Assembly (NCBI GenBank): GCA_035701265.1
Contig: DASSNU010000015.1
Coordinates: 8,393 to 72,392 of the forward strand
Length of the DNA: 64,000 nucleotides
Direction: 5' to 3'
From: Gemmatimonadaceae bacterium
GTDB lineage: Bacteria; Gemmatimonadota; Gemmatimonadetes; Gemmatimonadales; Gemmatimonadaceae
Part shown: one piece after another, positions 11,334 through 31,898 of the stretch
How the letters are laid out: every line of letters starts with the position of its first letter
Numbering within the stretch: position 1 is the first letter of the stretch
Notes under the pieces: model-generated
The model's input: only the letters and a program-made list of their open reading frames with translations
Database searches by the model: none
Told to the model about the DNA's origin: nothing
Position numbers and translations under genes: made by a program

Positions 11334-11475
11334 GTTCTGCGCGTGGTGGCCGGAACTTCAACAGATGTCGCGGCGGTAGCCTGTAGTTGGTGGCCAACGC
11401 GGTGGGCCGCTTGAGCACGCGGTTCTGAGGCGGCCAAGTCCCGAGCGCTTCCAGACCACCGGCGTTGCGGCACGT

Positions 11476-13332
11476 CTACGCCGCCCCTCCTGCCATTGCA
11501 CGGAATACCGAGCTCGAGCCTATCAATTCGTCGTACGTTCCCGACTGCACGATGCGTCCCTTGTCCAGCATATAGATCGCGTCGCAGTCCCGGACGGAAC
11601 TGAGCCGGTGCGCGATCATGACGAGCGTCTTGGCACGTGCGATGTTGTGAATCGCCTCCATGACAGCAGCCTCGGTGATCCCGTCCAGCGCACTCGTTGC
11701 CTCATCGAAGATGATGAGCTCCGGATCGTTGTAGAGTGCACGGGCGATTCCGATGCGCTGCCGCTGTCCACCACTCAAGCGGACGCCCCGCTCCCCCACC
11801 ACCGTATGATACCCGTCGGCAAGCGAGCCGACCGCCTCATGCAGGTTGGCGATCTTCGCGGCACGCTCCACAGCGGCCATGTCGATTTCATCGTCCGGCA
11901 TTCCGAACGCGATGTTTCTCGCGAGCGTGTCGTCACACAAAAAAATGTGTTGCGGGACGTAGCCGACGAGCCGTTTCCATCCCGGAAGCATCGCGGCGTT
12001 CACGGGCGCCCCATCCACCAGGACCTGCCCCTCCTGTGGCACAAGCAACCCGAGGAGGACATCCACGAGCGTGGTTTTGCCAGACCCGGTCGCGCCGACG
12101 AGCGCAATCTGGCCGTTCTTCGGCACCACAAGGTCAATACCTTCGAGTGCGGGCGTGCTGCATTCGGGATACCGAAAGGTCACCTTGCGCAGCTCGATCG
12201 CTCGCGTGAACGCGAGCGCTGACGCTCCCTTCTGCGGTAATGCGATTCTCTCCGGCACAGAGGCGACCGGTGGGTGCCGGTTCGGCTCCAGCAGGTCAGC
12301 GTGCAACACATGCAACGCCGCTCGATTGAAGCGCAACGACGTCACGCCGAGGAACACCTGCTGCAGCGCAGGCATCATCCTGTATCCAGCGAACGCGAAG
12401 AGGCTCACGATCGGCAGTATGTGCGTCACGTTCCGCCCAGCCATCAGGGACAGCAGGATAATGACCAGCGCGCCCCCGAACGCCACGGGCTCCATAACGT
12501 AGCGAGGAACCGCCGACACAATCTGATTGTTCGCCATGTGCCGGGAGAACAGCGCTGATGGTCCGGTGAACCGCCGGAGGAAATGATCCTCGCGCCCCGT
12601 CACTTTGAGTTCTTTGATGCCACCGAATGCTTCCGCGGCCGTCTTGAACCGGAGTGTGTTTGCGTGCAGGCGCTCGCGGCCAATGCGCCCCTGACGCCGA
12701 CGTACCCCGAGATAGATCACACCGTACGCGCCGCCGAACCCGAGACCGATGGTAACCGCCAATCGCACATCCACGACAACAAGCAATGCGATAAGAGCGG
12801 TCACCATTACTGCTCTTGCCAACGCATTCAACACCGGGATCAGAATGCCGGTGATAACGGAGTTTACCTCACCCAGAATGTTCTTCGAGAGATCCGACGT
12901 GTTGCAGTTGAGGAAGTAGACGTATGGCTGCGACAAGTACTTGCGGAGTAGGCGTACGGAGAGCGAATGGTTCTTGTTCCAGACCAAGCGAAGCGTCAGC
13001 CACGTCGTGAGCGCTGACAGTACGTTGTTCACCAGAATGAGGATGAGGACGCCGAAGCCAACCGCGATCACGAAATGCTGCATGTTCGTGAAATGGAACA
13101 TGGCATAGACGCGACTGAGCACGCGATGACGTGTCACGACGGTCGGGTCCGCGACCAGCGCCATGAACGGCATGATCGACGCCACCCCGGCCATCTGAGC
13201 GAGCGCGGTGACGACGATGACGCACAAGAGCGCCAATAACCCAAGGCGCTCTCGACCCTCGAAAAGGTCCAGGATCTTGCGGAGGTCGGCTAGCATGCCG
13301 GCCCCGGATTTGGTCGTCGCATGCCGGACCAT
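11476..13332 (-). CDS. ABC exporter, fused permease + ATPase (MsbA/type I exporter-like)
   Basis: The N-terminal half has six hydrophobic segments. The C-terminal NBD carries Walker A (GATGSGKTT), the signature motif (LSGGQRQRIGIARAL) and Walker B (LIIFDEATSALD). An alternative start is ATG 13296 (MLADLRKIL). Confidence 0.9.
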   Translation of the reverse strand: MVRHATTKSGAGMLADLRKILDLFEGRERLGLLALLCVIVVTALAQMAGVASIMPFMALVADPTVVTRHRVLSRVYAMFHFTNMQHFVIAVGFGVLILILVNNVLSALTTWLTLRLVWNKNHSLSVRLLRKYLSQPYVYFLNCNTSDLSKNILGEVNSVITGILIPVLNALARAVMVTALIALLVVVDVRLAVTIGLGFGGAYGVIYLGVRRRQGRIGRERLHANTLRFKTAAEAFGGIKELKVTGREDHFLRRFTGPSALFSRHMANNQIVSAVPRYVMEPVAFGGALVIILLSLMAGRNVTHILPIVSLFAFAGYRMMPALQQVFLGVTSLRFNRAALHVLHADLLEPNRHPPVASVPERIALPQKGASALAFTRAIELRKVTFRYPECSTPALEGIDLVVPKNGQIALVGATGSGKTTLVDVLLGLLVPQEGQVLVDGAPVNAAMLPGWKRLVGYVPQHIFLCDDTLARNIAFGMPDDEIDMAAVERAAKIANLHEAVGSLADGYHTVVGERGVRLSGGQRQRIGIARALYNDPELIIFDEATSALDGITEAAVMEAIHNIARAKTLVMIAHRLSSVRDCDAIYMLDKGRIVQSGTYDELIGSSSVFRAMAGGAA

Positions 13333-17976: not shown

Positions 17977-18194
17977 CGTGTGAGAGATAAGCTAACGGAG
18001 GGGAGATCTCGCTTCATCGAGACGCGGCGGGACGACGGGAGGCAACGGGGACGTGCGCGCTCCCCTCCCCCGCCAACGCGACATCGGTGCGAGGGAAGGA
18101 TGCCGGCCTCCCCGATCCGATGCCATTCCCCGCCGTTGTAGCCGCCAGCCTGAGGTACGGTCACCGGCACCCGCGCCGTGGCCCACCCTCCCAC

Positions 18195-18223
18195 ATTGAC
18201 GACTATGGTACAGCGTACTATAT
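18195..18223 (+). promoter_or_regulatory. Near-consensus sigma70-type promoter: TTGACG - 17 nt - TATATT
   Basis: TTGACG at 18195-18200, a 17-nt spacer, and TATATT at 18218-18223. It sits in an AT-rich patch just upstream of the conserved part of the toxin gene. The spacer contains ATGGTAC-agc-GTACTAT, an imperfect inverted repeat. Confidence 0.5.
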
Positions 18224-18231
18224 TCTACGGC

Positions 18232-18573
18232 GTGCCCGACTGGCACGGGATCGAGTTCATCCATCTGCCCAGCTATCGCCGGTCTGCCGAAGTGCTGATC
18301 GATGATGAGGAGCAGCGGACGCTCGAGGAGCGGCTGGTGCACGATCCGGAGACCGGGCCGGTAATGCCCGGCACGGGCGGCGTGCGCAAGCTTCGCGTCG
18401 CGATGCCCGGGCGCGGGAGACGCGGCGGCGCGAGAGTGATCTACTACTATCGCAGAAGCGCGCAGCGGATCTACCTGATCGTCGCGTACGCCAAGGGTCG
18501 GAAAGACGATCTGACCCCTGCGGAATGCGCGACGATGCGGAGGCTCACTACGCTACTCGAAGGGGAGACATGA
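18232..18573 (+). CDS. RelE/HigB-superfamily toxin (the GGxRKxR...RGGxRvIYYY type)
   Basis: GTGGVRKLRVAMPGRGRRGGARVIYYYRRSAQRIYLIVAYAKGRKDDLTPAE matches the conserved core of this toxin family. The track start (18178) lies upstream of the predicted promoter. GTG 18232 gives the family-typical length of about 113 aa. Confidence 0.75.
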   Translation: MPDWHGIEFIHLPSYRRSAEVLIDDEEQRTLEERLVHDPETGPVMPGTGGVRKLRVAMPGRGRRGGARVIYYYRRSAQRIYLIVAYAKGRKDDLTPAECATMRRLTTLLEGET

Positions 18574-18962
18574 CCACGCGCACGGTGGGAGAGGAGATCA
18601 TCGCGGGGCTGGAGGAAGCGCTCGCCTACGAGCGCGGCGAGCTGAAGGGGGTGAAGGTGACGCGCGCCACGCTCGCCACGCAACGCGCGGGCGTCGCGCC
18701 CGCGCCGAGCGTGGGCGCGCAGGGAATCATGGCGCTGCGCGAGCGGCTGCGGCTGTCGCAGCCCGTGTTCGCGGCGGCGCTCAACGTGAGCCCGGAGACG
18801 GTGAAGAAGTGGGAGCAGGGGACGCGCGATCCGGACGGCGCCGCGCTCCGTCTGCTCGAGCTGGCCGACGCTCACCCCGAGTGGATCATCGAGCGGATCA
18901 CCGCCGCGCCAGCGCGTACGCGATCACCGCGCGGGACAGCCCGACATTCTCGCCGTCGATGA
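18570..18962 (+). CDS. XRE-type HTH antitoxin (HigA-like) partner of the upstream toxin
   Basis: ATG 18570 overlaps the toxin stop (ATGA). The HTH reads LRERLRLSQPVFAAALNVSPETVKKWEQGTRDPDGAALRLL. The toxin-first gene order is typical of HigBA modules. The C-terminal tail extends into the duplicated segment described in the findings. Confidence 0.78.
   Translation: MTTRTVGEEIIAGLEEALAYERGELKGVKVTRATLATQRAGVAPAPSVGAQGIMALRERLRLSQPVFAAALNVSPETVKKWEQGTRDPDGAALRLLELADAHPEWIIERITAAPARTRSPRGTARHSRRR
18897..18933. repeat. Left copy of a 37-bp perfect direct repeat (atcaccgccgcgccagcgcgtacgcgatcaccgcgcg)
   Basis: Identical to 20029-20065. Weaker similarity extends upstream (18841-18896 versus 19939-20028). 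The minus strand of this copy encodes ...SRAVIAYALARR*, a duplicate of the C-terminus of the gene ending at 20030. Confidence 0.85.
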
Positions 18963-20028: not shown

Positions 20029-20065
20029 ATCACCGCCGCGCCAGCGCGTACGCGATCACCGCGCG
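20029..20065. repeat. Right copy of the 37-bp perfect direct repeat
   Basis: Identical to 18897-18933. It overlaps the true 3' end of the nucleotidyltransferase gene. The flanking 19939-20028 is a degenerate copy of the 3' end of the HigA-like gene (LLALADAH... versus LLELADAH...). Confidence 0.85.
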
Positions 20066-21043
20066 CGGCGAGCCCTCGGCCAGCGCGCCGCCCGCGGCGA
20101 TGAGCCGGCGCGCGGCGTGGCGCCCCTGCACGCGGACGGCGATCTCCGCGCGGAGCCGCCCCACGCGCCGCACCGCGCGCCATGACGCCTCCGGCACGCG
20201 CGCAGCGGGCACGCGCGCGTCGAGCACGTGCGCCGCGCCCAGGAGCGTCTCCATGGCGCGGCGCTCCACGCTCGCGTGCACGAACGCCGAGACGCGCGCG
20301 AGGTCCACCTGCGGATCGCTCACCACTGCGGCCACGTCGATCACGTCGCGCAGCGTGTAGCGGAGCATCCGGCTGGCGGTCGCGTGCGCGAGCGTGTGCT
20401 CGGCCAGCGCGGCCGGCGAGGGGAGCCACACCGGCGCGCCGCCAACCTCCACCTCACGCGCGTCCTGCCAGATGTCGACGCGCGCTCCGTCGGCGCCGTG
20501 CCGCCGCGCGAGGCGCGTGTGAATCTCCACCGGCAGCCAGCCAGGGAGCGCGATGGCGTCCAGGTGGTGATGCCCGGGGATGTGTTCCACCACGGCGTAT
20601 CCCATCTCGCACTGCAGCGCGCGGTGCAGCAGCTCGGCGCCCGCGCGATCGTCGACCAGGAGGTCGATGTCATCCATGGTGCGCGAGGCCGCGGTGTGCG
20701 CGCCGGCCAGGAGACGCGCGGCGCCCTTGAGCGCCATCACGCGCACGCCGCATCGCGCAGCCAGCATGGCGATGCGCGCGAGCTGCGGCGCCACGCGGAG
20801 CGACTGGCCGAGCGCGAGCTGCGCGTCGTCCTTGAGCAGGGCGCGCACGTGCGCGGGAAGATCCAGCGCGTGTCCCGCGTCGAGCATCCACCCCCACACC
20901 GCGGGTCCGCACCGCTCGTAGCGCAGCACGCGGCGCCACCACGACGCGTCGGCGTCCGATGCGCGGCGCAGCACGGTGGCACCCGGCTGCTCGCGGCGCA
21001 CGGCGCTCGAGAGGAGATCGTGAATGGCGGAGGCGATGGACAT
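20030..21043 (-). CDS. Uncharacterised nucleotidyltransferase (NTP_transf_5 / PF14907-like)
   Basis: VRVMALKGAARLLAGAHTAASRTMDDIDLLVDDRAGAELLHRAL matches the KG...R..DiDlLV core of this family. The start is at ATG 21043 (MSIASAIH). The upstream part of the track ORF is Arg/Ser-rich junk. Confidence 0.7.
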   Translation of the reverse strand: MSIASAIHDLLSSAVRREQPGATVLRRASDADASWWRRVLRYERCGPAVWGWMLDAGHALDLPAHVRALLKDDAQLALGQSLRVAPQLARIAMLAARCGVRVMALKGAARLLAGAHTAASRTMDDIDLLVDDRAGAELLHRALQCEMGYAVVEHIPGHHHLDAIALPGWLPVEIHTRLARRHGADGARVDIWQDAREVEVGGAPVWLPSPAALAEHTLAHATASRMLRYTLRDVIDVAAVVSDPQVDLARVSAFVHASVERRAMETLLGAAHVLDARVPAARVPEASWRAVRRVGRLRAEIAVRVQGRHAARRLIAAGGALAEGSPRAVIAYALARR

Positions 21044-21074
21044 CGTGCGCGCGGAGTGCGGCGGTGCGCGAGCG

Positions 21075-21938
21075 CTACGGAACGAGGAACGCCGGCTGGC
21101 GATCGTCCTGCGAGCGCGCGAGCAGCACGCGGCGGCGGTGATCGGACACCGTGTAGGCCACCAGATCGGCGGCGCCGCTCGTGGGGACGAGCGCGCCCAC
21201 GCAGTACGACGCATCGCACGCGGGCTCTCCCATGTCCTGCGACTCGATCGGGAAAGCGTCCGTGGCACCGGTGCCCAGCGTCACCACGTGCAGCGCGTTC
21301 CCCACGCCGGGCGTGTAGACGATGCGCGTGCCGTCGGCGGTCCATGCCGGCTCGAAAGCGCCGCTCGCTTCGTGCGTCACCTGCTCGGCCGTTCCTCCGG
21401 CGGCGGCGACGACGAACACCTGCGACGTCCCCGTGCTCACCGAGGCGAAGGCGATCATCGAGCCATCGGGGCTCCACGCCGGCGACTGCTCCGGCACCGA
21501 CGCCGCGGATCCGGTGGCAAGGGCAGCCACGTTGGCGCCGCTCGCGTCCATCACGTACACGCGAACGATCCCGCTCCGATCGCTGGCGAACGCAACGCGT
21601 GAGCCGTCGGGTGAGAGGGCGGGAGCGAAGTCCGCCGCGGCGTTGGTGGTGAGACGCTGCACGTTCGCGCCGTCGTTCGCGGCAGTGTAGATCTCGCTGT
21701 TGCCATCACGATCGGAGGTGAAGACGAGCTTTCCGGCGGCGCTGTGCGGCTCGCTCTCGTTGCTCGTGGTCTCCGTGATGGGTGTGACGACGCCGCTCTC
21801 CGCATCGAGCGAGTAGAGCTGCGAGTGGCCGGCATCGTCGGTGGAGACGAAGACGATGGGCGCGAACGGCGGGAATGGCGGATCGCCGCCCGGACCGGCG
21901 CCGTCGCTGCACGCCAGGAGCACGGCGGCGGCGAACAT
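21075..21938 (-). CDS. TolB-like (PD40/WD40-like) beta-propeller lipoprotein, paralog 1
   Basis: MFAAAVLLAC is a lipobox-type signal. Repeated motifs follow: SPDGSRVAFASDRSG, VYVMDASGANV, SPDGSMIAFASV. Confidence 0.78.
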   Translation of the reverse strand: MFAAAVLLACSDGAGPGGDPPFPPFAPIVFVSTDDAGHSQLYSLDAESGVVTPITETTSNESEPHSAAGKLVFTSDRDGNSEIYTAANDGANVQRLTTNAAADFAPALSPDGSRVAFASDRSGIVRVYVMDASGANVAALATGSAASVPEQSPAWSPDGSMIAFASVSTGTSQVFVVAAAGGTAEQVTHEASGAFEPAWTADGTRIVYTPGVGNALHVVTLGTGATDAFPIESQDMGEPACDASYCVGALVPTSGAADLVAYTVSDHRRRVLLARSQDDRQPAFLVP

Positions 21939-22015
21939 CGCGATTCCCGCGCGCGAGCGTGCGACGCGCCATCCAGCGCCGCGTCCGCGACGCTCGTGCA
22001 ACGGTGCGCGATGCG

Positions 22016-22855
22016 TTACGCGAGACACGGTTCCTCCGCCACCGCTTCGGCGAGCGTGTGGGCCACGCGGTGTAGTTGCGCCGGCGAGTGCTCGAGCAGG
22101 CGCACCGGCACCGACTGCACCATGTGCGCGAGCAGGCGCAGGTGCGCGGCGGCGTGCCGGTCGTTCACCATCACCCAGCGCGACTGCCGCACGAGCGCGG
22201 CGAGTGCGTCGAGGGGGCGGAGGTGGTGCACGGCGTCGTGCGCGGCGAAGCGGACGAAGATGATCGCGGCGAGCGAAGCGGAGCGCGCGGTGTGCGCCGT
22301 CACCGGCATGCGGCGGCGCGGGTCGGCGACGTCGGCGGCGTGCGCCCAGCGTGCCAGCTCGGGAAAGTGATCGATGAGGGCGTCGCTCACGTGCAGCGGC
22401 TCGCGCCACGCGTGACAGCGTACCGCGTCCCCGTCCCGCTCCACCACCACGCCGTCATCGCCCAGCACGCCCCATCCCGCGCGCGCGAGCGCGTAGGTGA
22501 GCGTGGATTTTCCGCTGCAGCTGTCGCCGGCGAGGAGCCAGGCACGTCCGGTGGGATCCACCACGCCGGCGGCGTGCACGTGGTAGCGTCCGCGAGAGCG
22601 CAGCCGCTGGATGGCACCCGCGCGCGCGAGCACCTGTCGCGCTGCGCGCGATGCGCTCTCGAAGCCGGTTCCCCTCTCGAGCCGTCCGCCGCGAACGTGC
22701 AGCTCGGCGCCTTCCGTATCGTGACGGAGGTGCACCGTGTCGCCGCGCACGAGCCCGGTGACGGGGCCGAACTTCCAGGGGAGATCGGCGCCGCGTGGAG
22801 TGATGCTCTGTGCGGTGCGGGTGCGGCGAGCGGCTGCGCGCGACTGAGCGCGCAC
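22016..22855 (-). CDS. HPr kinase/phosphorylase C-terminal-domain-like P-loop protein (HprK-related kinase)
   Basis: HAAGVVDPTGRAWLLAGDSCSGKSTLTYALARAGWGVLGDDGVVV matches the HprK catalytic-domain P-loop region. GTG 22855 overlaps the TAG of the upstream small ORF (TAGTG). Upstream of that point, G/C-ending codons in this frame fall to 23/42. Confidence 0.72.
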   Translation of the reverse strand: MRAQSRAAARRTRTAQSITPRGADLPWKFGPVTGLVRGDTVHLRHDTEGAELHVRGGRLERGTGFESASRAARQVLARAGAIQRLRSRGRYHVHAAGVVDPTGRAWLLAGDSCSGKSTLTYALARAGWGVLGDDGVVVERDGDAVRCHAWREPLHVSDALIDHFPELARWAHAADVADPRRRMPVTAHTARSASLAAIIFVRFAAHDAVHHLRPLDALAALVRQSRWVMVNDRHAAAHLRLLAHMVQSVPVRLLEHSPAQLHRVAHTLAEAVAEEPCLA

Positions 22856-23022
22856 TAGCAGGGCGGATCGGGGGGTACGCCGCTGCACGTCTGGCCGGCC
22901 TGCAGGAGATAGAGCCCGGTGAAACCGGAGACGTTGAGCGTGAGCTCGGTGAGCGATGCGTGTCGCACCAGCGCCGGGGGGCACCAGGGGCGTGGCCTCT
23001 TCTCGATTGTACTGATTGTCAT
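22855..23022 (-). CDS. 55-aa small protein, candidate modified-peptide precursor: MTISTIEKRPRPWCPPALVRHASLTELTLNVSGFTGLYLLQAGQTCSGVPPDPPC
   Basis: 45 of 55 codons end in G/C, against 23 of 42 in the overlapping kinase frame. A GGGGAAG Shine-Dalgarno-like element lies 6 nt before the ATG. The stop overlaps the kinase start. I recognised no homolog. Confidence 0.5.
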   Translation of the reverse strand: MTISTIEKRPRPWCPPALVRHASLTELTLNVSGFTGLYLLQAGQTCSGVPPDPPC

Positions 23023-23146
23023 GAGGTCTTCCCCTGTGGTGGGCGCCGCGCCCCGAGCAAGAACTGCTCCGATCACGTATCTGACGATCCAGGGCCCCTT
23101 TGGAGTAACAGTCTGGGTGTCACACCAGGGGGTGAGATGTGAAGGC

Positions 23147-23181
23147 GCCTGGCAGGGGCCGGTACTGCGCCCCCACCAGGC
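23147..23181 (-). terminator. GC-rich stem-loop between TolB-like paralog 2 and the small ORF (possible terminator or attenuator; no U-tract)
   Basis: Arms gcctggcaggggc (23147-23159) and gcccccaccaggc (23169-23181) pair 6+5 bp around a 2-nt mismatch, with a 9-nt loop. Confidence 0.25.
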
Positions 23182-23208
23182 GGTCCCCCCATTCGAGTCG
23201 AGCTATGA

Positions 23209-24234
23209 CTAGCGGTGCAGGATCGCGGGCTGGCGGGCGGTGCCGAAGGCCGGTACGACGTCGGCCGGTGTGCCAGCGGCTGCCGCGTAGAAGTCCACGT
23301 CGGAGCCCGCTGCGGTGGTGACCGCGGCCACGCACCCATCCGCCGAGCACGACGGCTCGCTCACGCCGAGCGTCGCGGTGGCGTATTCGGCCACGGCTTG
23401 CGTGGAAACGTTCACGGAGCGAAGGCGCAGCCCACCCGCGTCGGCCACGTAGACGATCGAGCTGCCGTCGGCGCTCCACGTGGGGAGGAAGGCGCCGTTG
23501 AACTCGTGCGTCACCTGCACGGCGGATCCGCCGGCGGCGGGGACGACGAACACCTGCGACGTGCCGGTGCGGACGGAGGTGAAGGCGATCATCGAGCCGT
23601 CGGGGCTCCAGGCGGGCGCGTCTTCCGGCGTCCAGCTCTGCGAGCCGGTGGCGAGCTCCACCTGGTTGGCGCCGGTGCTGTCCATCACGTAGAGGCGTGC
23701 GGTGCCGCTCCGGTTGCTCACGAAGGCCACGTGCGCGCCGTCGGGGGAGAGCGCCGCCTGGTCGTTGGTGCCGGCGGTGGTGAGCTGCGCGACCGACTGG
23801 CCGGCGACATCGGTGATGAAGATCTGCGCAACGCCGTTCCGATCGGAGGTGAAGACGATCCGTCCCGCTGCGCTACTCGGCGCGAAGTCGTTCGCGTTGC
23901 TCGTCATGAGCCGCGAGACGGTGCCGCCGCTGTAGATGTAGAGCTGGTCGCTCCCGCTGGCGTTGGAGACGAAGGCGAACTCGAGCGATGCAGGCGCCAC
24001 GGTGGAGTCCTGCTTCGGCTTCTTGCTGCCCTTTTCACCGCCGTTGGACGGCGAGTTGCCGCCCTTGGCGAGCTCGCCCGTCTGGGTGAGTCCGGTGCCG
24101 AGCTGGTTGGAGCAGGCGCTTGCGCTGGCGATCAGTGTGACGATTGCAATCGCGAGCACCTGGCGGCGCGCGCGTGAGCCGTTGGTGCGCGCCGAGCGAT
24201 TGTCCGTCGCTGCACTCTGGCGGGAGTTCGACAT
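23209..24234 (-). CDS. TolB-like (PD40) beta-propeller lipoprotein, paralog 2
   Basis: The signal plus lipobox reads RRQVLAIAIVTLIASASAC. Repeats include SPDGAHVAFVSNRSG, LYVMDSTGANQ and SPDGSMIAFTSVRTGTSQVFVV. It is collinear with paralog 1, including the C-terminal C-x4-C and RQPA motifs. The start is at ATG 24234. Confidence 0.78.
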   Translation of the reverse strand: MSNSRQSAATDNRSARTNGSRARRQVLAIAIVTLIASASACSNQLGTGLTQTGELAKGGNSPSNGGEKGSKKPKQDSTVAPASLEFAFVSNASGSDQLYIYSGGTVSRLMTSNANDFAPSSAAGRIVFTSDRNGVAQIFITDVAGQSVAQLTTAGTNDQAALSPDGAHVAFVSNRSGTARLYVMDSTGANQVELATGSQSWTPEDAPAWSPDGSMIAFTSVRTGTSQVFVVPAAGGSAVQVTHEFNGAFLPTWSADGSSIVYVADAGGLRLRSVNVSTQAVAEYATATLGVSEPSCSADGCVAAVTTAAGSDVDFYAAAAGTPADVVPAFGTARQPAILHR

Positions 24235-24768
24235 GGGGGGGTCTCCTGGAGTGGTTCGTCGTGCTGCTGTTTGGATCGAGCGTGGCCCGATCGCGCCTTT
24301 CTGACCCAAAAGACTGGCCCAGTTTCCAAACTGTCACATTATTTGTCACTCATGAGGTCTAGCTGATATTGGAAAGGAATTTGTGGGCATAGTGACTGAA
24401 AACGTGCGGTTTGGCGGGGTGTCGGCGCGTTTTGAGACGGGATGGGCGAGCGCCCGCGATTCCGGGGGTGATCTATCGGAGCGATCGGACTGGCGGCGGT
24501 GATACGATCGTCTTCCAGACTTCACCGCCCTGTCCATTTCCACAGGGCCGCCAAGTACCACGGGGCCGCCAAGCGCGCACGGCGGCACATGCCGCCATCC
24601 GATCGACCGTCTCCTCATCCACTCTCGACACCTCCCACTTTGAATGCCGCGTTCGGCAGGCTTCGACGCCGGGCGATGCAGATTTCAACGCCGCGTTCGG
24701 CAGGCGGCTGGTGGTGCCATTCCGTCCTCCACTCGACCCTCCTCTCCTGCAGCACCATGTAATCAAGT

Positions 24769-24919
24769 GATATCGCCCGCGATACCATGCGAACAGGATC
24801 CCAGGTGATGAGCTGTGATCAGATGGTATCGCCCGCGATACCATACGATGACGATGCCATGTGATGAGGTGGTATCGCCCGCGATATCACTTGGATGAGG
24901 TGGTATCACCCGCGATATC
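24769..24919. repeat. Four copies of an 18-bp palindromic element G(G/A)TATC(G/A)CCCGCGATA(C/T)C
   Basis: Copies lie at 24769-24786, 24825-24842, 24871-24888 and 24902-24919. The arms GGTATCGC and GCGATACC are exact complements. The last two copies sit in a 31-bp tandem unit (gatgaggtggtatc.cccgcgatatcacttg). Confidence 0.85.
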
Positions 24920-24960
24920 ACTTGATCGCAGGGCGCGGGAGACGGAGGGGTGCAGGGTGG

Positions 24961-25205
24961 TCCGAAGCGGAGAGCGGGGTCCGAAGCGGAGAGCGGGGTC
25001 CGGAGAGGAGAGCGGGGTCCGGGGCGCCGCCAGGCCTCTGGGGCGCCGAGAAGCCTCTGGGGCGCCGAGAAGCCTCCGGGGCGCCGAGAGGCCTCCGGAG
25101 CGGAGAGAGGGGTTGTGAGAAGAGAGGGCGAACCGGGGAGGAGCGGCTGCCCGGACAGGAGAGGGTAGCCCGGACAGGTGAGGGTAGCCCGGACAGGAGA
25201 GGGTG
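24961..25205. repeat. Three adjacent families of 19-bp tandem repeats (3-4 copies each)
   Basis: Family A (tccgaagcggagagcgggg) starts at 24961, 24980 and 24999. Family B (gggcgccgagaagcctctg) starts at 25022, 25041, 25060 and 25079. Family C (gcccggacaggagagggta) starts at 25149, 25168 and 25187. A 19-nt period is not a multiple of 3. Confidence 0.9.
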
Positions 25206-25561
25206 GTTGTGACAGGGTGGACTGGTGACGAGGCGGGCGCAGACGGGCGCCAGGTAGGCGATCGCCGCCCCTTCCGCCATGTCTTCCGCGCCTCACGCCG
25301 GGAGTCGGGTGCATGCCGCCACCAGATGCGTGACCGGAGGGATATGCAAAGGGTCAGTGTCGCGCCCCGCAGGGGAGCCGCCCCTCCCGCTCACGCACTC
25401 GGCACACCCCTCACAACTCCCCTCGAACTCGAGCACCGAGAGTGGCGCCACGCGGGAGAGCTCCTCACACAGTCCCGCCCCAACGATCGAGCGGCCGTCC
25501 CATCTCGATCGAGATGGGACGGCCGCCGGTTGGGCTCCCCCAAGGGAGCGTGGGTTCCGTG

Positions 25562-25738
25562 GAGTGGAGGCCTGGGGTTCCGGGCCGTGCTGCTGTACAG
25601 TGCGCCTATCCCTTCCTGCTTGCTCTTCCTGTGCCGCGTTCCAGTCCTACTTGCCTGTCCTTTACCGCGTTCCCGAAAAGACCGGTGAAAGGTTGACTGA
25701 TGAGTGGAGGCCTGAGGTTCCGGGCCGTGCTGCGTACA
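25562..25738. repeat. About 38-bp direct repeat, two copies 140 bp apart (gagtggaggcctg(g/a)ggttccgggccgtgctgc(t)gtaca)
   Basis: Copy 1 is 25562-25599 and copy 2 is 25702-25738. They differ by one substitution and one 1-nt indel. Both lie just downstream of the lipoprotein gene stop at 25773. Confidence 0.8.
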
Positions 25739-25772
25739 TCCATGGTACCTGCTGGCGCGTCACCGCCGAGTG

Positions 25773-27113
25773 TTACGGCTGCGTCACGCCGATCTCGTAC
25801 GTCACGTTCGACCAGAGCGTGCTCATGGTCTTCCGCGACCCGTTGTTGAAGAACCCGAACATGAAGCTCCGCGAGTGGCTCACGTCTCCCTGCGACGTCC
25901 AGGGGTCGTTCGGCAGCGCGCTGTAGCTCACCGTGAGCGCGGGGGTGGTGGAGAAGCCGATGAAGAGCTGCACCGACGTGTTCCCGTTCTTCACGATGCG
26001 CAGCTGATCGTTGCTCGTGAACGACGACGTGCTGATCTGGCCGCCCACCTGGTTCAGATTCCCGTCAATGAAGTACGTGTTCTTCTGTCCGATGGCCAGG
26101 AGGATCAGCTTGTTCTGGTCCGTCATCCCGATGAGCCCGACCTGTTGATCGCTGTTGGCGCCGTACGAGCCACTGTATGAGAAGGCGATGTACGCGTTCT
26201 GGCTGGTGCCCAGCGAATCGCTGCGGTAGTAGAGCAGCTCCGCCTGGTCGCTGCTGCGGTTCGTGTCCTCCACCTTGAGGCAGCGCGAGGCGAAGAGCGG
26301 GCAGCCGGAGGTGACGATGCTCCCCCTGGTGGTGCCGACGTCCACCGTCTTCCAGAACGGCTCGGTGCCGTTGTCGGGGAGCGAATCGGGGCGGTAGTCC
26401 ACCTTCCAGCGCGACTCCTGCGGCGCCTGCCATGCGGCGCTCAGCGCGATGCCGAACGAGTACCGCTTGATCGCCGTGTCCACCACGAAGGTGATGTTCT
26501 GCGCTCGCGAGAGGTCGGTGCCGGAGTTGGCCACGCCGTCGCTCTTTGCCAGGACGTCGTTGAAGAACCAGTACGGCTGCGCGGTGGGCGTGGTGAACGA
26601 CGCCGACCCGTGCTGCTGCGAGACGGTGATCCGGCAGCCGGCCGTGTTGGCCACGCAGCCGGAGGTTGCCACCGGCATGGTGGTGAGGAACGCGAACTCG
26701 CCGAGCGTGTCGCGCGCCGTCGCGGCATTCCCCGCCTGCGAGGTGCCGACGGCGAAGCTCAGCAGGTTCTCCACGCGCATGGTCATCGGCAGCTTCCACT
26801 GCCCCTGCGCGTTGATCGTCGCCGGCGACGCCATGGCGAAGCGGAAGGCAGCCTGCTGCTTGGTGCCGTAGATCTGCCGGTTGCTGCCGGCGCTCGCCGA
26901 CATGTTGTCGATCGGCGTGGTGGTCACCGTGCCGCTGGCGACGTCCACGTCTACGCGATACATGCCGGTGATCTCCTGCTCGGCCGCAGGGGTGCCGGGA
27001 AGATCGGGCTGCGTGAGCGGCGCGACGATGGAGTCGCTGCTGCAAGCGGTGCTCGCCAGGAGGGCGACCATCGCTGTAACGATACCGGCACGCTTCAGAG
27101 TCAGGCTGAACAT
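25773..27113 (-). CDS. Secreted lipoprotein of unknown function
   Basis: 446 aa. MFSLTLKRAGIVTAMVALLASTAC is a signal peptide with a lipobox. The mature part is Ser/Thr/Asn/Gln-rich and Arg-poor, with beta-rich character. I recognised no catalytic motif. Confidence 0.72.
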   Translation of the reverse strand: MFSLTLKRAGIVTAMVALLASTACSSDSIVAPLTQPDLPGTPAAEQEITGMYRVDVDVASGTVTTTPIDNMSASAGSNRQIYGTKQQAAFRFAMASPATINAQGQWKLPMTMRVENLLSFAVGTSQAGNAATARDTLGEFAFLTTMPVATSGCVANTAGCRITVSQQHGSASFTTPTAQPYWFFNDVLAKSDGVANSGTDLSRAQNITFVVDTAIKRYSFGIALSAAWQAPQESRWKVDYRPDSLPDNGTEPFWKTVDVGTTRGSIVTSGCPLFASRCLKVEDTNRSSDQAELLYYRSDSLGTSQNAYIAFSYSGSYGANSDQQVGLIGMTDQNKLILLAIGQKNTYFIDGNLNQVGGQISTSSFTSNDQLRIVKNGNTSVQLFIGFSTTPALTVSYSALPNDPWTSQGDVSHSRSFMFGFFNNGSRKTMSTLWSNVTYEIGVTQP

Positions 27114-28013
27114 GGCGAGCTCTCTTTCCTTGGTGCCGCCGGCCGAGTGTGTCCGGCAGCCTCCCGTCCCGACCTGGTGCCTTGGGACGTGGCGACAAGT
27201 TAGGGGTGGTCAATCATCGTGAAAACGCCCTAACATGACTGATTTCCAATGCGCAAGTCACAACTTCCGGCGCACGACAGAGCGCCGCGGATCACTCGCG
27301 TAACTAGCTGATACAGGGTAGGTTGTGACGCAGGAGCGCGAGACGCCTCCGGGCAGACGGACCCTCGACTCGTCGTGCCGGTCAGATGGGCCGCCGCATT
27401 CCGGTTAGAGCGACTCTAATCCACCGGTGGCGTGTGGGAGGTCGTCAACAACATTTCTTTGCAACCGGCTCGATCATCACGACCGAATCCGCCCTCCGTG
27501 CCCACTCTGCCGTCGCAAAATCACGCGCGCAGAAGCGGGGCGAGTGTGGGGGGGAGGGGGCAGCGCGCGTACCGCGGAGCGGTGGCGTCCTCCGAAAAGC
27601 GATCGACGCTGGATCGCCGGTACGAAGGAAGCCGCGCGGCGGCGAGCGATCGGGTACAAACCATGCACTGGGGCGCCACACTTGGGCGCCAATAGATCAC
27701 GCCGGCGAATCTCGCTCGAGGCGTGTCGGTGCGATCCGGAGGCCCTGGCGGTGGCAGGTTGTGGGTGGTGGATCACGTGGCCGGCAGTGGCGCGCGGATG
27801 TGACGAGACGGTACCGATCTCGTCCCATTCTGAGCGCGCACGGCGTGTGGCGGCCGCCGAGTCTCACGGCGTGTGACGCTTGTGTCGCACGGACTGAGCA
27901 GTTCTTATTCACTGCGTTCGCGGCGCCGCCCGATCCGGGCGATGTGACGCATCGGCGAACGCTCCGCGGGGACACTCTGTCCTTTCTCGAGTCTTCACAG
28001 CGAGCGACGTAGC

Positions 28014-30050
28014 TTGGGCCGCCTTCGAAATCGGCATCTCCTTCTCCTCGACGCCGCGCTGATCGCCGCCACGGCGATCGTGGCGTACGCGCTGCGTTTC
28101 GAGGGATTCAACTGGTCGCGCTTCGAGACGTCCGCGGCCCTCCTTTATACCGCGCTCTCCGTCGTGGTATGGATCGGCGTGCTGCTGGCGGCCGGGCTGT
28201 ACCGCCGGCTCTGGCGGCACGCAAGCGTGGTGGAGCTCGAGCACATCCTGCTCGCCGGCCTCTCCGCCGGCGCGGTGTGCTTCGCGCTCGGCGCGATCGT
28301 GATCCCGGGGCTGGGGATCTCCCAGGCGCGCGTCCCCCTGTCGGTGCTCTCGCTGCACGTCTTCTTCGCGCTCACCGTCGTGGCGGCGCCGCGGATGGCG
28401 CTCCGCGTGCTGGGCGCGCGCAGCCAGCGGCGGCGGAGGAGCGACGACCGCCGGGCGCTGGTGGTCGGCGCCGGCGCGGCGGGACAGTTGATCGCGCGCG
28501 AGCTGCTGGCACACCCGCAGCTCGGGCTCAATCCGATCGGCTTCGTGGACGACGATCCGCGCACGCACAACCTGCGGCTGCACGACCGTCCCGTGTTCGG
28601 CCCGCTGTCGGACATCCCCGAGGTAGTACACCGCCACGACGTGGGGGAGATCGTCATCGCGATGCCGAGCGCGCCGGGACACGTGGTGCGCGAGGTGCTG
28701 CGTCTGGCCCAGCTCGCGCGCGTGCCGACGCGCACGGTGCCCGGGCTGTACGAGATTCTGAGCGGGCGCGTGGGGGTCTCGAGTCTGCGCCAGGTGCAGA
28801 TCGAGGATCTCTTGCGGCGCGAGCCGGTGCGCACCGATCTCGCGTCGGTGCGCGCGCTGGTTGTGGGGCGCACGGTGCTGGTGACCGGCGCGGGCGGATC
28901 CATAGGGAGTGAGCTGTGCCGTCAGCTGGCGCAGCTCGATCCGGGGACGCTCGTGGTGCTGGGACACGGGGAGAACTCGATCTTCACCATCCTGCACGAG
29001 CTGCGCGAGCAGTTCCCCGGGTTGGCGGTGGTGCCGGTGATCGCCGACGTGCGCGACCGGATGCGTATACGCCGCGTGTTCGAGCAGCACGCGCCGCAGG
29101 TGGTGTTCCACGCCGCGGCGCACAAGCACGTGCCGCTCATGGAGCACAACGTGGTGGAGGCGATCACGAACAACGTGCAGGGGACGCGGAACGTGGCGGA
29201 CGCGGCAGCCGCGGTCGGCACGGAGCACTTCGTCCTCATCTCCACCGACAAGGCGGTGCGTCCCACCAGCGTGATGGGGGCGAGCAAGCGCGCCGCCGAG
29301 CTGGTGGTGCAGAGCGCGGCGGCCGCGTCGGGGCGGAACTTCGTGTCGGTGCGCTTCGGGAACGTGCTGGGGAGCCGCGGGAGCGTGGTCCCCACCTTCC
29401 TGCGGCAGATCCGCGCGGGCGGCCCGGTGACCGTCACGCACCCGGAGATGCGCCGCTACTTCATGACGATCCCGGAGTCGGTGCAGCTCGTGTTGCAGGC
29501 CGCGGCGCTGGGGCGCGGCGGGGAGGTGTTCGTGCTGGACATGGGCGATCCGGTGCGGATCATCGACCTGGCCACCGATCTCGTGCGCCTGTCCGGACTG
29601 GAGGTCGGTACGGACATCGAGATCCGCTGCACCGGCGTGCGTCCCGGGGAGAAGCTGTACGAGGAGATGTTCTTCTCCGAGGAGAACGCCACGCCCACGG
29701 AGCATCCCAAGGTGCTCCGCGCGCGGAACGCCGTGGCGTCACCCGATGTGGCGTCGCTCATCGACGACCTGATCGACGCCACCGAGACCGGCGCCAAGGC
29801 GGACCGGTCGCTCCGCCAGATGCTGGCCTCGATCGTCCCCGACTACGTGCCCGACGGATCGCCGGCGGCGGTGCCGGACGCGCCAGCGGATGAGGACGGG
29901 GACGAGGACGAACGCGCCGCGCAGGCGCCTGCGGCCGGCATGTCGACCGGGGCGGTGGTCGCGCCGGGCAACGGGCAGATTTCGGCGGAGTCGAGTCGAA
30001 CCGCAGTGAGCGCGCCAGGGTTGGTGGTACCCGCCCCCGCGCCGGACTGA
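28014..30050 (+). CDS. Membrane-anchored UDP-sugar 4,6-dehydratase (CapD/WbpM/PglF family)
   Basis: Four N-terminal TM segments are followed by a pseudo-Rossmann region (RALVVGAGAAGQLIAREL). The SDR domain has VLVTGAGGSIGSELCRQL, STDKAV and MGASKR. TTG start. The C-terminal tail is acidic and low-complexity. Confidence 0.9.
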   Translation: MGRLRNRHLLLLDAALIAATAIVAYALRFEGFNWSRFETSAALLYTALSVVVWIGVLLAAGLYRRLWRHASVVELEHILLAGLSAGAVCFALGAIVIPGLGISQARVPLSVLSLHVFFALTVVAAPRMALRVLGARSQRRRRSDDRRALVVGAGAAGQLIARELLAHPQLGLNPIGFVDDDPRTHNLRLHDRPVFGPLSDIPEVVHRHDVGEIVIAMPSAPGHVVREVLRLAQLARVPTRTVPGLYEILSGRVGVSSLRQVQIEDLLRREPVRTDLASVRALVVGRTVLVTGAGGSIGSELCRQLAQLDPGTLVVLGHGENSIFTILHELREQFPGLAVVPVIADVRDRMRIRRVFEQHAPQVVFHAAAHKHVPLMEHNVVEAITNNVQGTRNVADAAAAVGTEHFVLISTDKAVRPTSVMGASKRAAELVVQSAAAASGRNFVSVRFGNVLGSRGSVVPTFLRQIRAGGPVTVTHPEMRRYFMTIPESVQLVLQAAALGRGGEVFVLDMGDPVRIIDLATDLVRLSGLEVGTDIEIRCTGVRPGEKLYEEMFFSEENATPTEHPKVLRARNAVASPDVASLIDDLIDATETGAKADRSLRQMLASIVPDYVPDGSPAAVPDAPADEDGDEDERAAQAPAAGMSTGAVVAPGNGQISAESSRTAVSAPGLVVPAPAPD

Positions 30051-30211: not shown

Positions 30212-31735
30212 ATGCGCCGACCCTCCCTGGGCGCCGAAGCCGAAGCAGGCGCCATCCATCTGCGAAAGTCCCTCCCCCTGGCCGCCGCCATCCGCTGGAC
30301 TCCGGATGACGGGCACGGCGACCCGGCGTGGGACCGCTACGATGTGTTCATCACGCAGGATGCCCTGCGCGGGGTGGACCGGCACGTGTGGACCGCCCCC
30401 GACCGGGAGCTGCTCGGCTTTCTGCTGGGCGACCTGTACGAGTGTCCGGAGAGTGGGGAGGTCTACGTCATCGTGCACGCCGTGGTGCGCACGGAGCACG
30501 AGATCGACGAGGAGGCGGTGGAGCAGATTCCGGAGCAGGTGTGGCGGGACACGATGACGGCAGTGCGGACGCGGCGGGCGCGGGTGGTCGGTTGGTATCG
30601 CAGTGCGCCGTACGTCGGCCAGGCGCCCACCGCGGCGGACGTGGCCACGCACCGGTCGCGCTTTCCCGAGCCGTGGCAGGTGGGGCTGGTGGTGGCCACC
30701 TCCGGTCCGCCGGCGGGCGCGGTCTTTCGCGTGGTCGAGGGAGCGGCCGGTGGGGGAAGCGCGGCTCGTGGGGTCGCAGCCGCCGGCGCGGGCACCGGCG
30801 CCGGTGCCGGCGCGGCGGGTGGCGAGGGGAGCGACTCTCTGGGCGCTGCGGCTTCGCTGGGTGTGCTGGGCGGTTCGCGCGGGATCTTCTCTCCTTTCCT
30901 GGAGCTGCTGCACAAGGATGCGCTCCCTGAGGGAGACGGTCCCAAGTCGAGCGTGATCGACTGGGAGAACTACGTGGCCGGGGAGCCGGTGCGCGTGGTG
31001 GAGAGCGTGCAGAAGGTGCGGACCGCTGCCGCCGGGCGGAGCGCGACGGGCGCCACAGGTGCCGCGGGTGCGGGCGGCGCCGTTCCGGCCGCGGTGGCGC
31101 GCGGGACGATCACCGGTTCGCCGGGGATTCTGATCCCGACCGGTGCCGATCATCCTGTCGTTCCGCCGAGTGCTCCCCAGCGGCGTCGTCCGATCTTTCC
31201 GGTCATCGGATACGTGCTGGCGACGATCGCCGTGCTGGTGGGTGCGGTGATGCTGGCGAGGCGCGTGGTGCCCGCGCTCGAACCCGACGGGGGTGGGGCG
31301 CGGCGCGTGACTGCGGCGCACGAGAGCGGCGCGGGCGCGGTACCGGGCGCGCCGGCTGGCACGGGCGCACAGCCGGGAGCACCGGGGCTCGGCGCGACGC
31401 CGGGAGTGGCAGGTGGCACCCCCGGTGCGGCGCTCCAGCCGTCCGGCGCGAGCGCGGCGGCCATTCGTCGTTTCTCGCTGGCGGCCGACTCGCTGTCGCG
31501 CGCGGTGACGAACTACCAGGCGCGCGCGGAGGATTTTCGTCTGCACCGGATCGCGTGCTCGCAGCTCGCCACCGGCTACCGGTTGGCGGACGAGCAGTTT
31601 CAGACCGTAGCGAGTGTGTATGGCGAGGTGCGCGATTCTCTCCTGGCGCCGCAGCACGGGCGATACCAGCAGATCGTGGACAGCGTGGCGGTGCTGAACC
31701 AGCAGTTCGACGCCTCGGGCTGTCCGCGACCGTAG
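30212..31735 (+). CDS. Hypothetical protein: N-terminal degenerate MPN/JAB-like domain, low-complexity linker, one TM segment, C-terminal domain of unknown function
   Basis: RELLGFLLGDLYE...VVGWYRSAPYVG aligns to the MPN E...GWYHSHP pattern but lacks both His residues. The TM segment is IFPVIGYVLATIAVLVGAVMLA. GAGG lies 4 nt before the ATG, and TATACT lies upstream. Confidence 0.5.
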   Translation: MRRPSLGAEAEAGAIHLRKSLPLAAAIRWTPDDGHGDPAWDRYDVFITQDALRGVDRHVWTAPDRELLGFLLGDLYECPESGEVYVIVHAVVRTEHEIDEEAVEQIPEQVWRDTMTAVRTRRARVVGWYRSAPYVGQAPTAADVATHRSRFPEPWQVGLVVATSGPPAGAVFRVVEGAAGGGSAARGVAAAGAGTGAGAGAAGGEGSDSLGAAASLGVLGGSRGIFSPFLELLHKDALPEGDGPKSSVIDWENYVAGEPVRVVESVQKVRTAAAGRSATGATGAAGAGGAVPAAVARGTITGSPGILIPTGADHPVVPPSAPQRRRPIFPVIGYVLATIAVLVGAVMLARRVVPALEPDGGGARRVTAAHESGAGAVPGAPAGTGAQPGAPGLGATPGVAGGTPGAALQPSGASAAAIRRFSLAADSLSRAVTNYQARAEDFRLHRIACSQLATGYRLADEQFQTVASVYGEVRDSLLAPQHGRYQQIVDSVAVLNQQFDASGCPRP

Positions 31736-31898
31736 CGCGGAGCGTCGCGCCGGCGCGTGGTGGCGTGCGGAGCCGGCGTCGCGGCGGCATTCTGCGATTG
31801 CGTCGCGGCGGCATTCTGCGATTGCGTCGCGACGGCATTCTGCGGCGGAGCCGTGGCGGTAGCGCGGCGGTAGTCGCTTCCTGCACAGTGGGCTTGCG

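Follow-up and report, generated by a model that had tools for sequence, protein, structure and literature searches.

What is a gene-free tract, crowded with palindromes and short tandem repeats, doing between two lipoprotein genes of a soil Gemmatimonadaceae bacterium? The tract lies in a window of 64,000 nt, the whole stretch of DNA analysed here, with a PD40 (TolB-like) lipoprotein gene on one side and an orphan lipoprotein gene on the other. Among the neighbour genes, Pfam and NCBIfam annotate PD40 propellers, an HprK-like protein, NTP_transf_5, a CapD-like protein, epimerases and RelE/HTH. A literature search for intergenic repeats or CsrA in Gemmatimonadetes found nothing relevant.

The preliminary description took the tract as one object of 1.4 kb. 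It does not hold together as one. The ends, 24235–24358 and 25491–25772, are conserved and belong to the neighbouring genes, and the centre is absent from the relative. Our reading, tentative and held with slightly less than even confidence, is that the gap is composite and that its centre is a lineage-specific, non-coding filler of minisatellite type with no sequence-specific function.

Repeat anatomy and coding status

Repeats cover 30% of the tract by self-comparison; among 107 control windows the median is 0 and the highest value 18%. Their copy numbers are not an assembly artefact of contig DASSNU010000015.1, because an independent Logan contig from run SRR26663109 reproduces window positions 23587–25482 at 100% with zero gaps. 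This contig is the one further copy of the tract in the collections and is 100% identical.

The tract is non-coding. The spread of G+C among codon positions is at most 0.26 over 24250–25700, against 0.4–0.6 in the flanking genes, and 14 ORF translations of the tract have no Pfam match (4 searched at E ≤ 0.01 and 10 at E ≤ 1). Its first description as gene-free is borne out, and so is the dismissal of the ORFs that cross the repeats as artefacts, with neither coding signal nor Pfam match. One of them, of 183 aa, has no second protein-database entry except the identical Logan copy. A coding gene or a pseudogene was rejected by the GC-frame plot and Pfam, and also by a CxxCH scan, tblastn and Smith-Waterman scores against shuffles.

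The palindromes had been reported as four copies, two of them in a 31-bp tandem unit, and this is confirmed. The GGTATCGCCCGCGATACC-like 18-bp copies lie at 24769–24786, 24825–24842, 24871–24888 and 24902–24919 with 0–2 mismatches, and the last two are inside a 31-nt tandem unit at 24863–24924 (96% matches by TRF). A search for GGTATCGCCCGCGATACC returns seven strand-matches against 0.16 expected, zero of them outside the tract. The dyad is longer than first reported, reading TGGTATCGC-CC-GCGATACCA with additional CAAGTG/CACTTG extensions. Copy 1 has an arm asymmetry opposite to that of copies 3 and 4. As RNA, the cluster folds at z = −7.5.

A 56-nt unit pair at 24758 and 24814, 80% identical, underlies part of the cluster. 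Between these two units the 20-nt core has 1 mismatch in 20 positions and the flanks have 10 in 36 (p = 0.038). The better conservation of the core is a hint of selection, of gene conversion or of a separate insertion of the palindrome.

The 19-nt repeats had been described as three families, each with its own consensus. The arrays are where they had been placed, and TRF detects them with period 19 at 24959–25021 (3.3 copies, 95%), 25018–25110 (4.9 copies, 87%) and 25149–25204 (2.9 copies, 94%). They are not independent families; the 15 units share a single register with one 1-nt slip, at 25150. Identity at lag 19 is 0.73 against a background of 0.33, and at a higher order a segment of about 94 nt is duplicated within the array. 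Each of the three consensus sequences has no other occurrence in the window.

Compositionally, the array is 73% G+C and its + strand is purine-rich (GC skew +0.38, AT skew +0.36). GGAG stands in nearly every unit of this strand, and the C-type units can put GGA into small loops. The + strand RNA has no excess structure (z = −0.07), and the − strand RNA folds at z = −2.1. The unit of sub-array B holds two short palindromes, GGCGCC and GAGGCCTC.

Two further pairs were rightly noticed at first and need new limits (Table 1). The 16-bp direct repeat at 24646 and 24690 is present as merely the core of a longer 23-nt pair, and the supposed 38-bp pair at 25562 and 25702 has a core of 32 nt, 97% identical, here called R. 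The 56-nt pair, an 18-nt pair at 24540 and 24558, the 31-nt tandem repeat between the R copies and the hairpin at 25491 had all escaped listing.

Table 1. Features of the gap between the PD40 gene and the orphan lipoprotein gene (window coordinates)
Feature	Position	Strand	Description
Upstream block of PD40 'TolB-like' lipoprotein gene (promoter/leader)	24235–24358	−	Conserved in relative
Unique non-coding segment	24359–24638		Left part of species-specific centre; no coding periodicity, unalignable to relative; degenerate palindrome half at 24451–24463, 18-nt near-repeat pair at 24540–24575
Direct repeat pair, 23-nt core TTTSAAYGCCGCGTTCGGCAGGC	24639–24705		Starts at 24639 and 24683, 44 nt apart; 91% identical; TRF row of period 22
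Palindrome cluster	24747–24941		195-nt composite inverted repeat as a whole; TRF and repeat search
20-nt core TGRTATCRCCCGCGATAYCA, four copies	24768–24787, 24824–24843, 24870–24889, 24901–24920		Nested in 56-, 46- and 31-nt units
Palindrome sequence			TGRTATCRCCCGCGATAYC
19-nt minisatellite	24942–25225		15 units in three homogenised sub-arrays, consensus TCCGGAGCGGAGAGGGGGG; TRF and register analysis
Unique non-coding segment	25226–25490		Right part of species-specific centre
Terminator-type hairpin	25491–25526		Perfect 18-bp stem (18+18 palindrome); conserved in relative
32-nt element R, copy 1, GAGTGGAGGCCTGGGGTTCCGGGCCGTGCTGC	25562–25593		Repeat search
31-nt tandem repeat, 1.9 copies	25614–25673		Between the two R copies; alignment gap, absent from relative
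32-nt element R, copy 2	25702–25733		39 nt from lipoprotein stop codon

The repeats listed in the preliminary description are all far above chance and have zero copies elsewhere in the 64 kb, nor was any repeat copy found in five related loci. A metagenome scan for the palindrome matched at least 120 contigs once each. These matches are taken as chance because they are single per contig, with heterogeneous flanks and no arrays. A viral scan gave eight matches, each single, and blastn against plasmids and phages found no match to the tract.

The TRF periods of the tract are 19, 19, 19, 31, 31 and 22. None of these six tandem arrays has a period divisible by 3; of the ten arrays in the rest of the window, nine do (Fisher p = 0.0009).

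Several standard element classes were tried and rejected. A CRISPR array, with repeats of 23–47 nt and unique spacers of similar length, had been dismissed from the start, and rightly. The 19-nt units abut without a spacer, the palindromes lie at intervals of 56, 46 and 31 nt with partly homologous DNA between them, and no Cas domain occurs among the Pfam- and NCBIfam-annotated neighbours. An MITE or IS remnant is contradicted by the lack of an inverted repeat pairing the boundaries 24359 and 25490, and of plasmid or phage matches. A sigma-54 promoter with enhancer sites is absent from the tract, the window total being at chance level, and no tRNA or tmRNA that might mark an att site was found.

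Break in synteny and conserved ends of the gap

The databases give one close relative. The homologue searches with the lipoprotein and the PD40 protein found no other, and the distant loci L004 and L005 are not syntenic. Against this relative, blastn synteny covers window positions 20031–24358 and resumes at 25775; the 4456-nt alignment stops exactly at 24358. The break proper comprises 24359–25490 (1132 nt), with continuity on both sides. In the same slot the relative has a gene on the opposite strand for a 209-aa lipoprotein cytochrome c, a genuine c-type cytochrome. The difference may reflect loss of this gene here or its gain in the relative.

The centre shows no trace of that gene. Its local alignment with the relative's segment scores 26, where shuffled sequences score 26.2 ± 3.3, tblastn gives no match in the tract with E below 4, and CxxCH is absent from all six frames, so a relic of the cytochrome c was rejected. 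The relative also carries an array in this slot, lying within the gene as an in-frame 18-nt unit that encodes the linker of the cytochrome c (GRPGMA, five times). Homology between this coding repeat and the 19-nt unit was rejected as well, the similarity being not above chance.

The gap has four conserved parts: a 75-nt PD40 upstream block, the hairpin with the 18-bp stem and the two 32-nt repeats. The palindromes and the 19-nt array both fall in the unconserved centre. Lack of conservation is nonetheless weak evidence of lack of function, because there is a single relative, and at 62–71% protein identity neutral DNA would no longer align in any case.

Over the 75 nt of 24284–24358 the PD40 upstream block has 83% identity with the relative, and it carries TGTCAC-N6-TGTCAC at 24332–24349. 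It overlaps a sigma-70-like site, TTGTCA-16-GATATT at 24343–24370. A + strand transcript is possible because this site faces the tract.

The hairpin shares 16 pairs with that of the relative, and 2 of these 16 are kept through compensatory changes on both sides. Its stem has stayed perfect though no + strand gene now ends there. In the relative the hairpin begins 11 nt past the cytochrome c stop codon, and it resembles an intrinsic terminator in being a long, G+C-rich stem-loop right after a stop codon, with compensatory changes. It differs from one here, lying 247 nt past the lipoprotein stop codon and having no U-rich tract 3′ of it on either strand; the region 24000–26000 has 0 terminator-like sites. 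At the position examined for the U-tract, the relative shows GTTTGGTT on the cytochrome c strand.

The relative has both R copies too. A small ORF in R was rejected, as the four copies fall in different reading frames and one of them carries an indel; the conservation is thus at the nucleotide level. As candidates for cis-regulatory elements, the PD40 block, the hairpin and the pair of 32-nt elements rank above the repeats. The ends of the gap would be cis-elements of the neighbours, with the upstream block serving PD40 and the hairpin terminator and R elements making up the 3′ region of the lipoprotein gene.

Alternative roles for the repeats

The protein-binding array, the ncRNA and the regulatory minisatellite proposed in the preliminary description gained no positive evidence. 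A protein-binding array is unlikely. On this view a dimeric regulator would use the four 20–26-bp dyads as operators, with the 19-bp units perhaps as additional sites, and act at a distance on the PD40 promoter, 410–560 bp off, or on a + strand promoter. Such operators would suit the near-perfect dyad symmetry, the clustering of four copies, the conservation of the core above its flanks and the internal palindromes of sub-array B. However, no regulator gene adjoins the tract, whose neighbours are the PD40 propeller and the orphan lipoprotein, and no further site with up to three mismatches occurs in the 64 kb. The sites are missing in the relative despite its conserved PD40 upstream block, their spacing is irregular and a period of 19 bp does not keep helical phase. 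Distinctly unlikely is a low-copy, REP/BIME-like hairpin family gathered here beside an unrelated 19-nt minisatellite. REP families are species-specific, and these palindromes share that trait along with their place between genes, a G+C-rich imperfect dyad of about 20–26 nt that falls within the REP/BIME hairpin range of about 20–40 nt, strong hairpins, a core conserved beyond its flanks and the reversed asymmetry of copy 1. They depart from REP/BIME elements in that the remaining 62.5 kb has no other copy, the 'inverted' copy keeps its central CCCG uninverted, evident local tandem units enclose the copies, no RAYT-type gene is seen among the annotated neighbours and the metagenome matches are of the chance type. 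For an assumed 5-Mb genome, the probability of no further copy in the window is about 0.02 with 300 loci and 0.29 with 100 loci. Dispersal at hundreds of loci, as judged from 64 kb, is disfavoured, and low-copy dispersal is compatible.

Transcription of the centre offers two related accounts. It is very unlikely that a long + strand ncRNA starts in the conserved divergent-promoter block, ends at the conserved hairpin (about 24377–25526) and serves with its four hairpins and about 15 GGAG-bearing units as a sponge or scaffold, for example of a CsrA-like GGA-binding protein. The promoter-like site, the hairpin retained with compensatory changes and the purine-rich array with its GGA in small loops are consistent with it, and CsrB, RsmY and RsmZ likewise have multiple GGA/GGAG motifs in repetitive purine-rich stretches. 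Unlike them, the tract has no Rfam match at the gathering score, searched over the whole window with all CsrB/Rsm families included; at E ≤ 10 it draws chance-level miRNA and snoRNA rows. Moreover, the array has no significant structure and no defined promoter or terminator around it, the + strand promoter match is weak and not conserved in the relative, and FliW, not sRNAs, usually antagonises CsrA outside the Gammaproteobacteria. Less credible still is the conversion of the cytochrome c slot into a + strand ncRNA gene of about 1.1 kb that kept the old promoter region and terminator hairpin. With its hairpins and GGAG units it would titrate either an RNA-binding protein or ribosomal/anti-SD partners, and it would be a sponge RNA that arose de novo in Gemmatimonadaceae through tandem duplication. 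The least probable role is an iteron-type replication origin or a plasmid-style centromere like the sopC and parC arrays. The tract has in common with them contiguous short direct repeats beside palindromes, some units with internal dyads, and a length of 19 bp that the iteron size range covers; iterons usually repeat at about 21–22 bp. It lacks Rep, ParA and ParB genes among the neighbours, an adjacent AT-rich unwinding element, a GC-skew switch and any DnaA box TTATCCACA within one mismatch, its strict period of 19 bp does not stay in phase with the helix, and its context is chromosomal and syntenic with the relative. A replication origin was rejected on these grounds of DnaA box and skew.

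Origin and meaning of the centre

Minisatellite-type filler is the reading that we prefer, at the tentative strength given above. The repeats are most likely duplication-prone filler and not a new regulatory device, because they are confined to a stretch unique to the source species. MIRU-VNTR-type loci are an example of intergenic VNTRs or minisatellites in bacteria. The locus resembles such loci in its head-to-tail units of 10–60 nt in non-coding DNA, local homogenisation of sub-arrays, freedom from a multiple-of-3 constraint and restriction to a lineage. It differs in that a single 1.1-kb locus combines a palindrome cluster with several unit families that are unrelated to each other. With head-to-tail units within 10–100 nt in non-coding DNA it is a candidate for the VNTR/minisatellite class, an assignment drawn from one genome and one identical contig; in practice this class is defined by copy-number polymorphism.

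The centre would occupy a variable slot, taken by the cytochrome c gene in the relative. Nested local duplication may have built it, and remodelling probably continues. Replication slippage would yield the head-to-tail units of 18, 19, 31, 44 and 56 nt, and template switching at hairpins the inverted copies. The single 15-unit register, the ~94-nt copy and the 56-, 46- and 31-nt units around the palindromes fit nested duplication, and so does the 31-nt duplication that separates the two conserved R elements here and is missing in the relative. The contrast in periods is expected of frequent tandem duplication with and without a reading-frame filter. At the utmost, the centre would space or insulate the lipoprotein terminator from the PD40 promoter.

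Some points speak against filler. They are the core bias of the palindromes, the compensated hairpin and the inward sigma-70-like site. A stretch of 1.1 kb of junk would also be unusual, as bacteria normally lose DNA that is of no use. The centre would be of greater importance only if it is transcribed or protein-bound.

If the filler reading is true, the locus offers a clean natural case of one mutational process that passes through two filters. The tandem duplication of units of about 18–19 nt would be held to multiples of 3 in the relative's gene and run free at 19, 31, 44 and 56 nt here. The centre would also be a candidate strain-typing (VNTR) marker for this uncultured Gemmatimonadaceae lineage.

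The tract and its counterpart in the relative

The 1.4-kb tract between the PD40 gene and the orphan lipoprotein gene is three things: a left end, a right end and a species-specific centre. Lipoprotein homologues number three among 5.8 billion proteins, one of them close (62% identity), on a 2.4-Mb contig of the uncultured Gemmatimonadaceae MAG MFD01721.bin.1.79, the relative compared here. Its PD40 protein is 71% identical, the next matches reach at most 52%, and the more distant homologue loci show no synteny with the window. DNA synteny with the relative is unbroken over 20031-24358 (72% over 4456 nt), breaks at the centre (24359-25490, 1132 nt) and restarts at 25775-27287. Within the gap, alignment is limited to four pieces: 24284-24358, a hairpin at 25490-25526 and two 32-nt elements.

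The stretch of the relative from the conserved block to the hairpin holds a 209-aa gene (11632-12261 of its locus L001, minus strand of the locus). The gene runs opposite to the lipoprotein gene, on the equivalent of the window's plus strand in the slot 24359-25490. The product combines a lipoprotein signal peptide with a CFACH haem motif and is matched by the CcoP cytochrome c domain (E = 1.4e-11). This c-type cytochrome gene includes an in-frame 18-nt repeat encoding (GRPGMA)x5, and its stop codon is 11 nt ahead of the hairpin. No counterpart exists anywhere in the 64-kb window. Nor does the centre retain any sign of it: tblastn with the relative's protein finds nothing there, the CxxCH motif is absent in every frame, and the best local DNA alignment of the centre with the relative scores 26 against 26.2 ± 3.3 for shuffles. 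With two genomes compared, either loss of the cytochrome gene here or its gain by the relative would fit. The centre, where the sister species keeps a gene, contains the palindromes and the 19-nt array.

The same syntenic block has a second variable slot, with a RelE-like/Xre-HTH toxin-antitoxin pair at 18178-18962 where the relative has about 3.9 kb extra (L001 16806-20700; Eco57I-type methyltransferase, Fic and MazE). The cassette at 20030-24234 is kept in the relative and encodes an NTP_transf_5 nucleotidyltransferase, two paralogous PD40 propeller lipoproteins and a P-loop protein, HprK-related-kinase or ScmC-like by weak matches (E = 1e-7 to 7e-6). Peptide-modification cassettes look similar, but a precursor gene was not identified here. 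A second large non-coding gap (27114-28013, 900 nt) runs from the lipoprotein gene to a divergent CapD-like polysaccharide biosynthesis gene, and there only patches are shared with the relative, at 27100-27287 (76%), 27448-27492 (80%) and 27990-28042 (92%). Farther on, a 24-nt tandem repeat (31776-31844, x2.9, 97% matches) occupies much of the 164 nt that separate the JAB-domain gene (30212-31735) from the following gene; Tandem Repeats Finder reports no repeat at the matching place in the relative.

Repeat anatomy and coding status

Features of the tract and its bounding genes
Feature	Position	Strand	Remark
PD40 ('TolB-like') lipoprotein gene	23209-24234	minus	its start bounds the tract
Orphan lipoprotein gene	25773-27113	minus	its stop bounds the tract
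31-nt unit x2	24863-24924		96% matches (Tandem Repeats Finder)
19-nt array x3.3	24959-25021		Tandem Repeats Finder
19-nt array x4.9	25018-25110		Tandem Repeats Finder
19-nt array x2.9	25149-25204		Tandem Repeats Finder
31-nt array x1.9	25614-25673		Tandem Repeats Finder
23-nt direct pair	24639/24683		repeat finder
32-nt direct pair	25562-25593/25702-25733		repeat finder
Perfect 18+18 palindrome	25491-25526		repeat finder

Every repeat that the preliminary description listed between the two genes was recovered by Tandem Repeats Finder, motif search or the repeat finder. Self-repeats cover 30% of the tract; across 107 control windows of equal length their coverage has a median of 0 and peaks at 18%. 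The palindrome GGTATCGCCCGCGATACC occurs four times (0-2 mismatches), where 0.16 matches would be expected, and has no copy outside the tract within the 64-kb window. The 19-mer consensuses and the 32-mer are each restricted to the tract in a window-wide search, and blastn of the tract against the remaining window gives no match.

The proposed three 19-nt families hold as arrays but not as separate families. They form one array of 15 units in a single register (24942-25225), with a 1-nt slip at 25150 and the common consensus TCCGGAGCGGAGAGGGGGG. Identity is 0.73 at lag 19 and 0.59 at lag 38, over a background of 0.33. The A type resumes in the unit directly after sub-array B, and a higher-order duplication is evident from two TTGTGA units at a distance of 94 nt. 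The palindromes too are nested, in 56-, 46- and 31-nt units. The Logan contig L134 (run SRR26663109, 1896 nt) is identical to 23587-25482 at 100% without gaps, so a second assembler reproduces the copy numbers. It ends 8 nt short of the perfect 36-nt palindrome, as expected of a k-mer assembler.

The tract is non-coding. Its G+C by codon position spreads by at most 0.26 over 24250-25700, against 0.4-0.6 in both flanking genes. Pfam has no match for 14 ORF translations from both strands (4 at E ≤ 0.01, 10 at E ≤ 1), while Rfam gives no family in the whole window at the gathering score and chance-level rows only in the tract at E ≤ 10. These results bear out the earlier label of gene-free. None of the six array periods in the tract is divisible by 3, against 9 of 10 in the rest of the window (Fisher p = 0.0009). 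The sole exception outside, a 20-nt tandem repeat (x2.1, 59868-59909) within strong coding signal, could have arisen as a frameshifting duplication or could sit at the end of a gene.

Origin of the centre and rival functions

Nested local duplications visibly make up about half of the centre, with units of 19, 22 (the 44-nt-spaced pair), 31 and 56 nt. Because of this nesting and the periods that are not multiples of 3, we read the centre as a lineage-specific, presumably functionless and unconstrained spacer that acts as a minisatellite cluster. Tandem duplication is frequent in this genome and, within genes, lasts only with units divisible by 3. Direct units would arise by slippage and inverted copies by hairpin-mediated template switching.

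The roles first suggested for the repeats are candidates for which the analysis yielded no positive evidence. Some points go against pure neutrality. Comparison of the 56-nt units shows 1 mismatch over the 20 nt of the palindrome and 10 over the other 36 positions (p = 0.038), therefore the dyad may be selected, homogenised or independently inserted. The palindrome cluster folds far better than shuffles (z = -7.5) as a direct consequence of its dyads. A plus-strand transcript across the tract is conceivable, since a weak sigma-70-like site (24343-24370) is directed into it and the hairpin is still perfect. Nearly all units of the purine-rich 19-nt array carry GGAG, which raises the idea of a CsrB-like sponge, but the array has no excess structure (z = -0.07) and Rfam support is absent.

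REP-like dispersal of the palindromes at hundreds of loci is down-weighted by the zero further copies in 64 kb (in a genome assumed to be 5 Mb long, P is about 0.02 with 300 loci and 0.29 with 100) and by a metagenome palindrome scan with single, unrelated, chance-type matches only. A CRISPR array is rejected, as it was from the outset, by the absence of spacers and cas genes. An iteron origin or a centromere is discarded with no Rep/Par genes, DnaA boxes, AT-rich element or skew switch and a period of 19 bp, and a sigma-54 enhancer with no promoter site found in the tract. A MITE or IS is dismissed without boundary inverted repeats or any match in plasmids or phages.

Conserved edge elements

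The left end (24235-24358) is probably a conserved promoter or leader of the PD40 gene. Its 75-nt non-coding block upstream of that gene (24284-24358) is 83% identical in the relative, against 72% for the flanking coding DNA, and holds TGTCAC-N6-TGTCAC at 24332-24349 and a conserved AATAAT on the minus strand.

The right end (25491-25772) combines a conserved terminator-type hairpin with the lipoprotein 3′ region, in which the two 32-nt elements lie. Sixteen base pairs of the hairpin are kept in both genomes, 2 via changes on both sides. The 32-nt elements occur in two copies in each genome (L001 about 11495-11528 and 11405-11450), in the interval from the lipoprotein stop codon to the hairpin, with the pattern GAGTGGAGGCC.G.GGTTC...CGTGCTG. 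On the lipoprotein-sense strand they read ...GGCCUCCACUC, with an anti-Shine-Dalgarno-like CCUCC, and could be part of a 3′-UTR element or a 3′-UTR-derived sRNA. An extra 31-nt duplication sits even between them.

Function is likelier for the edge elements than for the conspicuous repeats. The feature itself adds a case, from a phylum that has received little study, to the known class of intergenic minisatellite and palindrome clusters.
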